A DNA stretch of 64,000 bases from Sinobacterium caligoides (GTDB taxonomy: Bacteria > Pseudomonadota > Gammaproteobacteria > Pseudomonadales > Sinobacteriaceae). This document shows positions 24,001 through 33,000 of the stretch, one piece after another (positions within the stretch are counted from its first letter, which is position 1; each line of letters begins with the position of its first letter). Position numbers: made by a program. The stretch spans positions 960,054 to 1,024,053 of the forward strand of contig NZ_RKHR01000004.1 of NCBI RefSeq assembly GCF_003752585.1, in the 5' to 3' direction.

Positions 24001-27000
24001 TATCAGACCCATTCTACGAGATCGCCTCTAACCCAGCAGCAAGAGCAACTTTCATCACTTCGATTATCGCCCTCATCGACCAGTATGACTTCTTCGATGG
24101 CATCGATATTGACTGGGAGTTCCCCGGTGGTGGTGGTGCCAACTCTACGCTAGGCTCTCCCGATGATGGGAAAAACTTTGCGATCTTAATGCAAGAGTTG
24201 CGCGCAGCATTAGATGAGTTGGAAATAGAAAACGGCAGAACTTACGAGCTAACGGCAGCCGTCAGTGGCGGCGTTAGTAAAATCAGCGAAATTGACTGGG
24301 AGAATGCCATTGACTCAATGGACCAAGTCAATGTGATGACCTACGACTACTATGGCACCTGGGATCAAACCTACGGTCACCAAACAGGTATCTATGATAC
24401 CGATACTAGAAGCACGCTCGTCGACGGTAGCAACGCCAACGATGTCGTCAACTATCTAACCACTAAAGGTGTCGCCGCGAACAAGATCAGCGTTGGCGTA
24501 GCGATGTATGGTCGTGGCTGGACAGGCATCACGAATGGCGATGCAAGCGGCCCCTTTGTCGAAACTGCGACAGGCGGCACGCCCATCACTGGACTTGAAG
24601 CAAATGGTTTCTGGGAGGACGGTATCGTTGACTATCAAGGCATCGAAGAAAATCAGCTTGGCGGCGAAGATGGCCAAGGCGCCAATGGCTTCGAGCTGTT
24701 CTGGGACGACATTGCCAAGGCAACCTACCTATGGAACGAAACGACCGGCACCTTCATCTCTTTCGATGACAAACGTTCGGTGAAGGCCAAAGGTGACTTT
24801 GTCACTGAAAAAGGCTTGGGGGGGATTTTCTCCTGGGAGATCGACTCCGATAACGGCACCCTGTTAAACGCCATGCACGAAGGTCTAGGCCACACCGAAA
24901 AAACACAGTAACAAAATGCGACAGTAGTACGACAGAGCGCTAAGTGCCTTGGGCCTTAGCGTTTTTTATTGCGCTGCTTGCACGAACAAGCACCTCTACA
25001 CGAGTAATAGAAGCAACTTATTTAGCCTTTATTTTTCTGCTTAACGCCCAGCTGTGAATAAATATATGCAAATAAAATACCTGCTACAGCACCGAAAAAA
25101 TGTGCTTCGTATGAAACATGCGAATCAGTCGGCAATACTCCGTAAACCATCCCGCCATATAACAGCCACACCAGCAAGGCGAGCAGCATATTGATCAGGC
25201 GGCGATCAAACCAGGCCATCGCCAACGATAAACTCCATAAACCAAACACCCAACCACTAGCACCAACATGGGAAGCCGATCGACCTAACAGCCACACCAA
25301 GCAACCACTTACGATGATGATAAAGGCACTGCTCACTAGGTAGAACTTTACCGAGCGCAACAAGCTGATCGCCGTAAAAAAACACAGAGCAACTAAGTTG
25401 CTCACAAGGTGCGCCGCACTTGCGTGAATAAAGGGCGCGATTAAAATACCAAAACTGCCCTCAACAGAGCGAGGCACAATGCCGAGCCCGCTCAGCCCGC
25501 CAGGCGTAGTAATATTGACCAAATGCACAAGGCACATAGTCACTACCAAGCCAGCTATAAGCCACAACTTTCCCCTAAGCGCCTTCGACAGCTTCAATTT
25601 ACTAACGCTCTGGCTTTGGCTTTGACTTTACTCGCGGCCGCTGTGCCGCTTTTAGCTCCCTTAACTGCTGAGCAATACCCTGCATCTTGTCATGAGTACG
25701 AAGATCGATATCAAGCTTCTTATCCATACTACGCACCAGCGGGTAAATACTATGTTCGATTGTCTCTGCGAGAACAGTCAACACACCATCCATACCTGGT
25801 ACTGGCTGATTAATAACCTCGATATTAGGGCTTAGGTTCTCCAGCGCAGCGGCAATCTTCTCGACGATCGTCGTCAACAGCGCAATTTCATCGGCGTGTT
25901 TCGGCTGTTTCTCACCGCCCTCACTAGCGGTTTCCGCAAGCTGTTGAATACCAGTAACCATATCGGATAACTGCGCAACAACCCTGCCACCCACATCACC
26001 ATCATCTCCCCCCATGGCTTTGTTACGCAGGAAATCCTTCTTAATCTGCTGCCAGCGAAGCGCCTGCTCTTCCGTCATATTGCCGCGTAATTCGGCGAGT
26101 TTGAGCAGGTTATCCTCGGCGCCCGTGGTAAGCAACTGCGCCTCGCCCAAATAATGATCGGCGATCATCTGTAGCATTTCCTGCTCGTTCATCACCGCTG
26201 TAATTTTCTCAGTCATCTTGTTCATGTTGCGATAACTACCCTGCAACTTGAACGCCGGCTCAGTACGGTATTTGTCGTCCTGTGCCGCCGAGGCGATATA
26301 TTGCTTATTGATCTTCAGTATCACCTGCTGAACCGTCAGCATTTTTTGTAAGATCTCTGTGATCTCATTAATTTCGGCAGCACTGTACTGATGACTCAGG
26401 TCGCTGCTGGCAACACGGTCGCCTTTTGCGAGCTTAATCAACTTATACACATCGTCCATATCACGCACGGCTAACGGCGCTAAGACGGGGTTTGAGGTCA
26501 AAGAGTTTTCAATATAGCTCAGCGAGAACTGCTCATCCATACCACCTAAAATATCACCGAGATTGTAGATGTCAGCACGGTTAGCCAGCATGTCAGGAAT
26601 TTTGAATGCCTCACCAGATTCCGTATAAGGGTTACCCGCCATAACAACACAAAACTTCCTGCCACGCATATCATAGGTTTTGGTTTGCCCTTTCCAAACA
26701 CCATCAACCCGCCTCGTACCGTCACACAGGGATATGAACTTTTGTAGGAATTCGGGATGAGTGTGCTGAATGTCATCGAGGTAAAGCATGACATTATTGC
26801 CCATCTCTAAACCGAGATTCAGCTTTTCTAATTCATTCCGTGCCGTCGCGTTCGGGGCTTGCTGTGGGTCAAGTGACAGCACATCGTGCCCGAGGGAGGG
26901 GCAGTTAATTTTCATGAAAATCAACCCAAGACGATTGGCGACATACTCCATCAGCGTTGTCTTACCGTAGCCTGGCGGCGAAATCATCATTAATAGGCCC

Positions 27001-30000: not shown

Positions 30001-33000
30001 TGTGTAATCGTATTGTAAACGAGATAGCGCCAGTGATCCTCACGATAAGGGCGTACTTTTAATAAGATAAAGCGACCAATAGCTGCATAGCTTATCTGTG
30101 CATCATCAAGCGATTGAGTTTCATCATCAACAGGCTCGCGATAAATGCCTTGCCCGTCCTCAGTATTATTCTCTATCTTGATGGTTAGGTCGCCGCCGAC
30201 AGTTTCGACAAAAATCGTATCTAATATATTGATATGAGCGTGACGACCGTTAACCACATCATCCCTGCCAGTCTCTACCCACTCAAAATCATAGGCTGGA
30301 GGCAGCTGTATATCGCGTTCACCACGGTTATCAATATATTTTATTTCCTGCCCATCGGCAGAAACAGACCAGCGGAACACACGAATATCATCGAGTCGCT
30401 CACCAATCTGGAAACCCGCTAAAAGCTTGCCATTTTTCAGCGTTAACTCAATTAGCTTGGTATTTTTGTAATAACGATAAAGCTCATCGAAATCATTTAC
30501 AAAACTACTTTCATTGAGAAACGAACCAGCCAAATCGACGGCTTGCATGTGAAAACTGCCCTGCTCTTCACAAATATCGAACAGCGCAAAAACATCTTCA
30601 ACTTTCGTTTCTTTTTTTAACCCAATAAAAACATTGTAACCGAACAGCAGGTGGTCACCCACCTGAACAATATCACGAGCAATACAGTTGTTTTCCGTAC
30701 GAACCCTGACGCGCGCGGTCACACTCATCTCTGAGCTACCGAATTCATTAAGTCGAGCCTGATTTAGCTCGCGCGCTTGCTGATCCAGCTGCTGCCCCTG
30801 ATCGAGTAACCTTTTTTTGATTACCTCATAGGCGCCGCCCTGAGCAACTGCGCTATCGACAACATCCGAAGCTAACTCAACGGATTGATCTTGCTGCACC
30901 ATTCATTCATCCTTTCGCCATGCCGACCGACCAATAGCAGCCCGTTGCTACAACGTATAGCGTTGCTGGGTCGCTCTGGAGTATAAAGAGTGGGGAGACG
31001 TGCTCCCCTTGGCTAGCTATAGCGCTATACCTCAGCGCTGTCTTTACTCGCCGCAGCGACAGGCTTCCCCTCTATCACGCGGTTTATCAACGCAGCAATC
31101 GTACCGCTCTTCCCTGCTAGGCCATCAACCGCCTTACCAATTGAAAGCGACTTGGCGAAGTTATCAAAGAAGTGTTCCTCACCTCCGACGATATCTATCT
31201 TAGCTTTTTGCAGTGCGACAGACAGAACCTCTGCATTCTCCTTCGCAATGTCTTTACCCGCGTCTATCGAGGCCAGCGCTTCTTTCAGTGCCGTCTCAAG
31301 ACCCATGCGGTACTCTTCGTGCGATCTCGCATCCTCACTCATGCTGTTCATCGCGTCAAACTTATCCACAAGGCCGTCAGCCTCTGCCTTGAACTGCTCT
31401 CGTGTAACCTCCGCATTAGCCAAACCAATCTCACGAGCAGCCTTCGCCTCTGAGTCACCCTGTGCCGCCGTCACATCAGCTTGTGCCTTACCTGTGCCAA
31501 GCAACGCATCAGCTTCAGCATCGCCCTTCGCCTTGATAACATTGGCCTCGGCAAAACCTTCTTTCTCGAGGGCGTCAGCCTTGGCTTCTTGGATCTTAGC
31601 ATCAGCTAGCCCTGGTGCAGCACGCTCCGCCTGTACTCCTTCAGCCATCTTCTTCTTGGCATCTGCCTCTTTCGCTGCAGCCTCGAGCTCTGCCTGAGCA
31701 AGCGTGGTGATTTCTACCGATTTATGCTTCGCCGCCTGCTCTTCTGCCTCGGCAGCCTTCACTTGCTTCACTTTATCTTCTTCGGCAATTGCCTCTGCCG
31801 CTAACACCTGAGTTTGCTTAGCTCGATCAGCCTCAGATACCTCACGCACCTCTTTGATCCGCTCCTCCTCGATAGCGACAGTCTTGTCGACAACCACCCG
31901 CTCTCGTATCACATTGGCAATCTCTTTCTTCTCGATTTCTACTGCCTTTTCGGCCTCGATGCGCTGTATCTCAACCTCACGTTCCCGCGAGACAATCTCT
32001 AAGTCCCTAGCACGCGTTACTTTCTCTTCTTCTATCGCCACCGCTCTCTGACGATTTTGCTCGGCAACCTCAATCTCACGTTTTTGGTTCTCTGTCTGTA
32101 CCTGTAAGTCTTGCTCAACCTGAATAGTGGTAGCTTCTGCTTTCAGGCGCTCCTCTTCTTGCACTTTTTTCGTCTCAGCTTCTTCACGCGCCCTAATGGT
32201 GGCTATTTCACGCTCCTGCTTCGCCTCTGCGTCAGACTGCTGTCGCTCAAGCTCTAACATAGCTTCAACAGTTTCTACGTTCTTTTTCTTAATCGCCAGC
32301 TCTTCATCACGCTCTAAGATATTGGTGCGGATATTTTGTTCAGCCGTCAGCTCGGTTATTTTCTTAATACCTTCGGCGTCAAGTATGTTTGTTGGGTCAA
32401 GCGATGCCTTTGGCGTTTGCTCTAGATAGTCAATGGCAACGTCCTCTAACACATAGCCATTTAGGTCATCACCTATAACTTCAATAATCTTTTCGCGGAA
32501 CTCCTGCCTATTCTCAAACAGGTTTACAAAATCAATTTGTTTACCGACTGTTTTTAAGGCTTCAGAAAACTTAGCATTAAATAAAAGATTAACCGCCTCA
32601 CGATCAGAAGCACGACCCGCGCCAATAGACTTGGCAACTTTCAATACGTCGTCAGTTGTTTCATTGACGCGCAAATAGAATGCGACAGTGATATCCGCAC
32701 GCATATTATCATTACAGATCAGTCCATCTTTGCCGCGACGGTCTACCTCTAGCGTTATGAGAGAGATGCGCATCAATTCTTTTTTATAGATAATTGGATA
32801 AACTAATGCGCCAGTGAAATGCACCTTAGGCTTCGTACTCATATCATTAACAATCAGTGCCGTTCCCTGCTCAACCTTGACATAAAAAGATTTAAATAGT
32901 ATTGCCATTCCCATCAGGATAGCGAAAAAAATTGCGGCGCCAGTGAAAACAGGCATCAAAACTGACAAGTCAGCCATAACTTTACTCCGTTTATATTTTT

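Follow-up and report, generated by a model that had tools for sequence, protein, structure and literature searches.

The closest described counterpart of the operon reported here is bacABCDEF, the "biofilm-associated cluster" of Pseudomonas aeruginosa. By reverse-transcription polymerase chain reaction it is a single six-gene operon, and in a bacA mutant all downstream products, including PA14_16190 (BacE), are up 6- to 13-fold (PMC10948618). Osmotic shock induces its PspA-like protein, PA3731, without which biofilm, swarming, rhamnolipid production, and virulence are not normal (PMC2587700). The SPFH protein of the cluster is BacD, also named PaFlo3, whose partner is a short NfeD (PMC13086221), and cystic-fibrosis isolates recurrently carry mutations in PA3728, listed as "ATPase" (PMC8190622). 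The genes PA3728–PA3732 are co-induced by phage infection and belong to a set of 17 genes that two different phages induce (PMC12041424). From comparative genomics, Ravi et al. (mSystems 2024; PMC11237479 and supplement) described operons of CesT/Tir, PspA, YqiJ/YuaF, and Band-7/flotillin genes, gave a Bacteroidota example from Dokdonia donghaensis, and proposed that such operons act in assembly beneath the membrane and in membrane dynamics that depend on ATP. Here we describe such an operon in Sinobacterium caligoides, within a 64,000-nucleotide (nt) stretch (assembly GCF_003752585.1, contig NZ_RKHR01000004.1, positions 960,054–1,024,053, forward strand) that we call the window, and we focus on its fifth gene (25602–30902, minus strand), which encodes a giant ATPase.

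The ATPase gene is the fifth of six genes on the minus strand, separated by intergenic gaps of 4–122 nt. In the open reading frame (ORF) listing of the window, it is a single unbroken ORF with an ATG start, encoding 1766 amino acids (aa) plus a stop codon, at the position and of the length given in a first-pass annotation made from the sequence alone; its product is 100% identical to the NCBI S. caligoides protein. Over the full length (1763 aligned columns), its identity to the P. aeruginosa ATPase (P0390; 1746 aa; cluster size of 3222 sequences) is 58%. BacE has the same Pfam architecture, and the first five genes of its operon have the same order as in the window. We are highly confident that the window ATPase is the ortholog of P. 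aeruginosa BacE (PA3728/PA14_16190) in a bacABCDEF-type operon. The operons of Ravi et al. (PMC11237479) have the same composition as ours, and their "beta-propeller + coiled-coil + AAA-ATPase" has exactly the domain architecture of the window ATPase; nothing essential differs. The sixth gene sets the two operons apart, encoding a rhomboid protease in the window and a PLDc_2 hydrolase in P. aeruginosa, and some genomes have both; Ravi et al. mention a PLD (HKD) hydrolase partner in some Proteobacteria but not a rhomboid partner.

We give a probability of roughly 0.6 to the reading, drawn from gene context, that the ATPase is the BacE-type subunit of a conserved envelope-stress/membrane-remodeling module acting on flotillin/PspA assemblies. 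The ATPase gene nearly always directly follows a YqiJ/NfeD-like and a flotillin-like gene; in many Gamma- and Betaproteobacteria, a BacA (CesT-like)–PspA pair stands ahead of this set, and a rhomboid protease gene, a PLD-like hydrolase gene, or both come after it. That the ATPase performs a specific ATP-driven step of scaffold remodeling, again suggested by its neighbors, is a more tentative claim, with odds somewhat below even. The first-pass annotation had passed over this informative context, the flotillin/NfeD/PspA operon.

The ATPase belongs to a large family. At least 5812 homologs were found at E ≤ 1e-5; those listed were almost all full length (~1650–1950 aa), with a precomputed Pfam architecture identical to that of the window ATPase. 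A search of a 50%-identity library with the C-terminal 597 aa matched 1009 representative clusters, of which 411 were at E ≤ 1e-30. Homologs were found in Gamma-, Beta-, and Deltaproteobacteria/Myxococcota, Acidobacteriota, and Bacteroidota; the sources named include Cellvibrionales, Pseudomonas, Lysobacter, Neisseria, Leminorella, Methylococcales, Myxococcales/Deltaproteobacteria, Acidobacteriota, and Thermoanaerobaculia, and one locus (L062) lies in a metagenome-assembled genome labeled Flavobacteriales. Like other members, the window ATPase carries PF12458, PF25472, and a C-terminal AAA-type P-loop module in a single chain of ~1650–1950 aa. We rejected mis-assembly or gene fusion, which the first-pass annotation had allowed for, because many full-length orthologs, including some from complete genomes, share this length and architecture. 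The same annotation had called the protein unusual for bacteria; it is instead a member of a conserved multi-phylum family with its own Pfam models, widespread and already catalogued in Pfam, NCBI annotation, and the literature, and neither the family nor its context is new here.

We then compared gene neighborhoods, using as our main sample 80 gammaproteobacterial loci fetched around ATPase homologs. A flotillin-like gene was directly upstream of the ATPase gene in 74 of the 80, and YqiJ-like, PspA, and DUF2170 genes were present in 68, 54, and 52 loci, respectively. The order BacA–PspA–NfeD/YqiJ-like–SPFH–ATPase was kept in most of these loci. Nine further loci (L081, L083–L086, and one each from Myxococcales, Neisseria sp., Leminorella, and P. 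aeruginosa) all had a gene of ~210–320 aa and one of ~660–725 aa directly upstream of the ATPase gene. The larger of these had a Band_7 match in two of the nine, and L081 had a separate 164-aa Band_7 gene between the two. The P. aeruginosa locus reads DUF2170–PspA–213 aa–688 aa–ATPase–PLDc_2. No VWA gene was found among the called genes of the nine further loci, nor was any VWA/MIDAS family found among the window ORFs scanned (880 to 52433). The absence of a nearby VWA gene had been noted before, together with the expectation of a VWA partner; the conserved partners turn out to be NfeD-like and flotillin-like proteins.

In L083, a PspA_IM30 gene and a gene for a 588-aa classical AAA protein (PF00004) lie directly downstream of the giant ATPase gene (13453–16026). 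The PspA link thus recurs in another gene order, with PspA downstream and not upstream, and two different AAA+ ATPases stand beside PspA in this locus. Loci of Methylococcales without a flotillin gene were considered as a distinct architecture and rejected, given an IS200-like rearrangement and a DUF3686 fragment. In one of them (L034, 4604–9886), the region upstream of the ATPase gene is occupied by a 282-aa DUF3686 fragment, two IS200-like genes (Y1 transposase), and Fic and Uma2 genes, so that the flotillin/NfeD partners are not adjacent.

The gene that follows the ATPase gene is variable. It is a rhomboid gene in the window and in Neisseria sp. and a PLDc_2 gene alone in P. aeruginosa; a rhomboid gene and then a PLDc_2 hydrolase gene follow in Cellvibrio, some Pseudomonas, and Leminorella. 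A rhomboid homolog was present in 38 of the 80 gammaproteobacterial loci, mostly directly 3' of the ATPase gene, and a PLDc_2 gene was present in 17 of 87 loci, frequently right after the rhomboid gene. In the window, the rhomboid gene begins 4 nt past the ATPase stop codon, and its catalytic-type motifs are intact: HASAAHLVSN (HxxxxHxxxN), GASG, and AHFFG (AHxxG). Pairing of SPFH proteins with proteases is a recurrent theme. These observations, together with the mention of NfeD/SPFH operons in PMC13086221, would fit an ATPase that works as an unfoldase or extractase, feeding membrane proteins from a flotillin cage to the rhomboid protease, maybe with the PLD-like hydrolase, as a split analog of HflK/C–FtsH or SLP2–PARL–YME1L. 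However, P. aeruginosa, all six distant loci, and about half of the gammaproteobacterial loci lack the rhomboid gene, which is accordingly an accessory and not a core component. In the AAA+ core, the conserved 18-residue loop that follows strand beta2 shows no evident pore-loop aromatic motif. We consider this division of labor quite unlikely.

The PLD-like gene also bears on the possibility that the operon is an anti-phage defense system of the abortive-infection type, in which the ATPase would serve as sensor or motor, and either the PLD-like (HKD) protein or the rhomboid protease would be the effector. HKD/PLDc_2 domains are frequent in defense nucleases, and toxin–antitoxin-like genes lie beside one locus. 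The patchy distribution and apparent horizontal transfer of the module (PMC13086221) and the induction of PA3728–PA3732 by two phages (PMC12041424) point the same way. On the other hand, the PLD gene occurs in just the 17 loci counted above, the genes flanking most loci are atypical of defense islands, and Psp-type systems respond to membrane damage generally, phage damage included. A PADLOC search returned no match for the ATPase or for the flotillin-like, YqiJ-like, DUF2170, and rhomboid proteins, and for PspA just weak generic coiled-coil noise. We see only a very slim chance that the operon is a defense system of this kind.

To which AAA+ clade does the ATPase core belong? The motifs quoted in the first-pass annotation (GYGKTT, LDDIQ, PEFLQKF, and AGNPYTESGE) are all present in the translation. 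They map to aa 1309–1431, with the P-loop at 1311–1316, and the module therefore does not lie at about residue 1150, as had been stated: its core spans about aa 1270–1450, centered on about aa 1310–1450, within a conserved C-terminal block that runs from about aa 1170–1267 to 1640. Pfam gave weak, overlapping matches at aa ~1304–1427, with AAA (33 bits) and AAA_5 (29 bits) both exceeding their cut-offs, besides AAA_22 and RuvB_N. When we scanned the ATPase segments of 16 members from diverse loci against Pfam, AAA_5 and AAA tied, each matching 16 of 16 members (best E of 2.1e-8 and 2.2e-8), and RuvB_N also matched all 16. The MoxR model AAA_3 matched only 10 of the 16 (best E of 0.042), every time below threshold; the window ATPase scored 14.2 bits vs. 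a cut-off of 27. No matches to the ATPase segments were obtained in the Pfam scan for the AAA_2, sigma-54 activator, Mg-chelatase, MCM, or Lon-specific models, or to the window ATPase for the MoxR families of NCBIfam. AAA_5 (profile positions 2–125 of 139) and AAA_3 align over the whole core; PF00004 covers only the first half to three quarters, and the core lacks the features of the classical AAA clade (a full-length PF00004 match with a second region of homology and no pre-sensor-1 hairpin).

Structure-based comparisons gave a similar picture. A model of the fragment aa 1170–1766 (mean predicted local distance difference test [pLDDT] score of 71.6) shows an AAA+ alpha/beta core, followed by a large lid and a tail that are both helical. 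Between helix alpha3 and the sensor-1 strand, two modeled strands make up a pre-sensor-1 beta-hairpin, a MoxR-type feature. A conserved 18-residue segment (aa 1334–1351) at the helix-2 insert position, after strand beta2, was modeled as a loop and not as a hairpin. Foldseek searches of the PDB gave RuvB (E of 3.7e-5; template modeling [TM] score of 0.33), NorQ (E of 1.1e-4; TM-score of 0.43–0.51), and CbbQ (TM-score of 0.43–0.44), followed by CLPB, MCM, and ClpA/B, with no classical AAA protein among the top 50. In the fold searches as a whole, midasin and dynein ranked high beside NorQ/CbbQ; ClpB/Skd3, ClpA, Lon, and RuvB were equally good; and classical AAA proteins ranked lower. Searches of PDB sequences, with the ATPase alone and with a 69-sequence profile, were set aside as uninformative on clade because their matches (RuvB, NVL, p97, and Rix7) are confined to ~35 residues of the P-loop.

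The first-pass annotation had assigned the core to the MoxR/dynein/midasin (AAA_5/AAA_3) class as opposed to Clp/FtsH. The half of this claim that concerns FtsH holds, as the core is unlike the classical FtsH type; the contrast with Clp fails, and by thresholds the core is not MoxR. The profile search it had proposed likewise gave a divided answer, with AAA_5 covering the whole core, AAA tying with AAA_5, and AAA_3 falling short. We conclude that the core is a divergent AAA+ module of the clades with a pre-sensor-1 beta-hairpin, AAA_5/MoxR-like in overall shape and closest to AAA_5/MoxR-like and HCLR modules. By curated thresholds it is not a bona fide MoxR protein; ClpB, Lon, and RuvB are as near to it as MoxR is. 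These results also weigh on the idea that the ATPase is a MoxR-type chaperone, as in RavA–ViaA, NorQ–NorD, and CbbQ–CbbO, whose VWA/MIDAS partner has its gene at another place in the genome. The alignment of AAA_5 over the entire core would fit such a role, as would the name "MoxR-like ATPase" on some JGI homolog records and the segment NPY..G...IPDMLANR after sensor 1, which we take to recall NP-containing segments of dynein/MoxR modules. The sub-threshold AAA_3 score, the equally good matches to the HCLR proteins ClpB/Skd3, ClpA, Lon, and RuvB, and the lack of a predicted beta-hairpin at the helix-2 insert position speak against it, as does the strictly conserved NfeD-like and flotillin-like set found in place of a VWA gene in the scanned window ORFs and the nine further loci. 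We rate a MoxR-type chaperone role as having a slim chance.

The nucleotide site looks functional, judging from its conservation. In an alignment of 69 diverse representatives (31%–53% identical to the window ATPase), the invariant positions are S1308–T1315, D1376–D1377, Q1379, H1380, G1423, N1424, P1425, R1442, and Q1554–R1558; the Walker B region reads VMLYLDDIQH (aa 1371–1380), followed by PEFLQKF (aa 1383–1389). The large C-terminal tail noted earlier resolves into a conserved helical lid (aa ~1451–1640) and a variable tail; alignments of distant representatives stop at about position 490 of the 597-aa C-terminal query. Between the first lid helices and the QGSYR motif lies a stretch of about 85 residues that could be a pre-sensor-2 insert.

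The "unknown N-domain" of the first-pass annotation is Pfam DUF3686 (PF12458, "ATPase involved in DNA repair"), matched at aa 39–485 with E of 2e-206 (686 bits vs. a cut-off of 25) over profile positions 2–448 of 448. In an AlphaFold2 model of aa 1–1200 (43 homologs; mean pLDDT of 83), a leading helix (aa 24–54) is followed by a beta-rich domain (aa ~60–420; pLDDT of about 85–90), for which Foldseek returned beta-propellers (Ski8, PON1, and prolyl oligopeptidase); the N-domain is accordingly modeled as a beta-propeller. Foldseek also returned propeller-plus-helix proteins for the N-terminal part, at very low TM-scores. Matches to IFT-A, nucleoporin, and clathrin would fit a "protocoatomer-like" reading of the N-terminal 1200 aa; with TM-scores of about 0.1 and helices that form long bundles instead of short solenoid repeats, we did not adopt it. 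The "long coiled coil" of the first-pass annotation corresponds in the model to a run of long helices (aa ~425–860, with single helices of up to 58 residues) and then a helical domain (aa 930–1181). In a profile search, the long-helix region weakly matched the syntaxin Habc domain (E of 0.017). The middle helical domain carries an invariant motif, G983-x-H985-D986-x-D988, along with conserved R975/Y976/G979/Y980; by its conservation this motif could be a second functional site, for example, one for binding a metal or ligand.

The family carries the NCBI product name "DNA repair ATPase," and one may ask whether this label is right. Apart from that name and the Pfam description of DUF3686, the label has in its favor a likeness to RuvB at the P-loop only, and the RuvB matches span just about 35 residues there. 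Pfam and NCBIfam scans detected no DNA-binding, nuclease, or helicase domain in the ATPase, every conserved neighbor is a membrane protein, and no paper in the library searched mentions DUF3686 or backs a role in repair. We regard a role in DNA repair as scarcely credible. The label is misleading and has spread to thousands of database entries; functional knowledge of the family would correct it.

Returning to a role in flotillin/PspA remodeling, we envisage that the ATPase would assemble into an AAA+ ring on the inner side of the membrane. Its beta-propeller and long helical region, in place of a VWA adaptor, would dock onto the flotillin/NfeD scaffold and, where PspA is present, onto PspA polymers too. 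ATP might then be spent on the assembly, remodeling, or disassembly of these scaffolds, or on pulling client proteins out of them. The analogy, in function and not in ancestry, would be to Vps4 acting on ESCRT-III and to FtsH within HflK/C cages.

Several observations weigh against this picture. About one-third of the gammaproteobacterial loci and most distant loci lack PspA and BacA, so PspA is not a universal client. The 650-aa protein encoded upstream of the ATPase gene in the window had no direct SPFH/Band_7 match in Pfam, NCBIfam, or PDB sequence searches. Its N-terminal transmembrane segment is followed by an SPFH-like region and a long E/A/K-rich coiled coil, and over 637 residues it shares 51% identity with its positional counterpart in L083, a protein with a precomputed Band_7 match; its SPFH assignment follows from such homologous neighbors carrying Band_7 and from PMC13086221. 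Deletion of paFlo3 led to only about a 20% drop in biofilm (PMC13086221), which argues that the module is not essential under laboratory conditions. Walker B ends in Asp-Asp, not Asp-Glu, an unusual ending that may make for slow, switch-like hydrolysis instead of a processive motor. The confidence of the fragment model is low near the P-loop and after sensor 1. Finally, literature searches on DUF3686, on BacE/PA3728, and on SPFH with AAA+ and beta-propeller found no functional, biochemical, or structural study of the ATPase.

The coordinates of the operon genes and of the parts of the ATPase are given in Table 1.

Table 1. Features of the ATPase operon and of the encoded ATPase (positions in the window; aa, residues of the ATPase)
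Feature	Position	Strand	Basis or remark
Sigma-70-like promoter TTGACA-17-TATATT ahead of the operon	35115..35143	-	11/12 matches, strong
DUF2170/BacA-like protein (CesT/Tir-like chaperone fold)	34464..35138	-	PF09938, E 9.9e-48
PspA/IM30 (ESCRT-III superfamily), 231 aa, BacB/YjfJ-like	33750..34445	-	PF04012, E 1.2e-48
YqiJ/NfeD-like membrane protein, 229 aa, BacC equivalent	33015..33704	-	Transmembrane segments and C-terminal beta domain
Flotillin-like SPFH scaffold, 650 aa, BacD/PaFlo3 equivalent	31025..32977	-	51% identity to L083 protein
DUF3686 N-terminal domain (aa 39-485)	29448..30788	-	Modeled as leading helix then beta-propeller; Pfam, AlphaFold2 model, Foldseek
Long-helix region (aa 495-858)	28329..29420	-	DSSP of AlphaFold2 model; contains DUF7902
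DUF7902 (PF25472; aa 607-689)	28836-29084	-	Pfam E 1.3e-27, 96 bits vs. cut-off 26
Small beta unit (aa 882-905) and all-helical middle domain (aa 930-1181)	27360..28259	-	AlphaFold2 model; conserved columns
AAA+ alpha/beta core (aa 1267-1450)	26553..27104	-	
Walker A/P-loop PPGYGKTT (aa 1309-1316)	26955..26978	-	Translation; invariant in family
Walker B strand VMLYLDD (aa 1371-1377)	26772..26792	-	Translation; D1376 and D1377 invariant
Predicted pre-sensor-1 beta-hairpin (aa 1398-1411)	26670..26711	-	DSSP strands 229-234 and 237-242 of fragment model
Sensor-1 region AGNPYTESGE (aa 1422-1431)	26610..26639	-	Translation; N1424 invariant
Candidate arginine finger R1442	26577-26579	-	Invariant column
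Conserved helical lid/extension (aa 1451-1640)	25983..26552	-	Conservation; model helices
Candidate sensor-2 motif QGSYR (aa 1554-1558)	26229-26243	-	Conservation; translation
Variable, helical, low-complexity C-terminal tail (aa 1641-1766)	25605..25982	-	Alignment consensus lost
Rhomboid-family intramembrane serine protease, 191 aa	25022..25597	-	PF01694, E 2.1e-17

Among the other products of the operon, the BacA-like protein passes the NCBIfam BacA equivalog model NF050185 (305.6 bits vs. a cut-off of 300), and the YqiJ/NfeD-like protein has a weak YqiJ_N match (E of 0.061) and a BLASTP match to the neighbor of the ATPase in L083 (E of 2e-19). The P. aeruginosa operon was reported with a sigma-54 site (PMC2587700, PMC10948618), whereas the window has a sigma-70-like promoter; a search for sigma-54-like sites gave no match upstream of the operon and, over the whole window, no more matches than chance would give. 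The promoter overlaps two copies of a perfect 10-bp palindrome, TTACATGTAA (region 35115–35160, minus strand), which looks like a putative operator. As the promoter sits on the annotated start of the BacA-like ORF, this gene probably begins in truth with the in-frame ATG at 35108, and the operon mRNA may have a very short leader. Farther upstream, about 10 tandem copies of the heptamer GGTTGTT (minus-strand reading) occupy intergenic positions 35262–35335; the array gives rise to a spurious 91-aa ORF (35149–35424) and could vary in length through slippage. A GC-rich hairpin without a clear T-tract, GGGGAGCACGTCTCCCC (30992–31008, minus strand), lies in the 122-nt gap between the flotillin-like and ATPase genes and could keep expression of the giant ATPase lower than that of the scaffold genes. 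Elsewhere in the window, adjacent large ORFs on the minus strand (880–6565) encode a 1078-aa protein with DUF6603 (E of 3e-133) and a 787-aa protein for which Pfam gave no match. GC content rises from about 0.43–0.50 over 1–44 kb to about 0.54–0.59 over 44–64 kb, and the higher-GC part carries molybdopterin oxidoreductase and transporter genes.

We finally set the window ATPase against better-known AAA+ systems. MoxR proteins such as NorQ, CbbQ, and RavA have about 250–500 aa and VWA/MIDAS partners, whereas the window ATPase has 1766 aa, with a modeled propeller and long helices and no VWA partner; it also differs from them in its DD Walker B, its much larger lid, and the long conserved insertion ahead of QGSYR. 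The likeness to HCLR modules (ClpB/Skd3 NBD2, ClpA D2, Lon, and RuvB) is limited in sequence to the surroundings of the P-loop, and unlike these, the window ATPase has no AAA_2 or Lon-specific Pfam match and no protease or DNA-binding partner domain. HflK/C–FtsH and SLP2–PARL–YME1L are SPFH–protease supercomplexes, in which the AAA+ part is a classical FtsH/YME1L module fused to a metalloprotease. The window resembles them in co-encoding an SPFH scaffold, an AAA+ ATPase, and a rhomboid protease; unlike FtsH/YME1L, its giant ATPase is a soluble, non-classical protein, and its rhomboid protease is only an accessory partner.

The remaining comparison is with Vps4 and ESCRT-III of archaea and eukaryotes. 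Here the analogy is functional only, with the window AAA+ protein genetically linked to PspA, which belongs to the ESCRT-III superfamily. Bacterial PspA/Vipp1 proteins are ESCRT-III homologs, and the BacE family is the one large ATPase repeatedly encoded beside PspA and, even more consistently, beside the flotillin/NfeD pair. According to a review, a Vps4-like regulator of PspA is apparently absent from bacteria (PMC7619361), which makes the family a candidate worth testing. The operon is tied in P. aeruginosa to biofilm, virulence, and phage response, and a role for the ATPase would explain how flotillin/PspA scaffolds are remodeled. In its strongest form, which we think on balance unlikely, the proposal is that BacE-type ATPases are the Vps4 counterpart so far missing in bacteria: a non-classical AAA+ machine that would have evolved independently and would grip flotillin cages and PspA polymers with its beta-propeller and helical arm and disassemble or recycle them in membrane repair. 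If true, ATP-driven ESCRT-III/SPFH dynamics would be bacterial as well as archaeal and eukaryotic.

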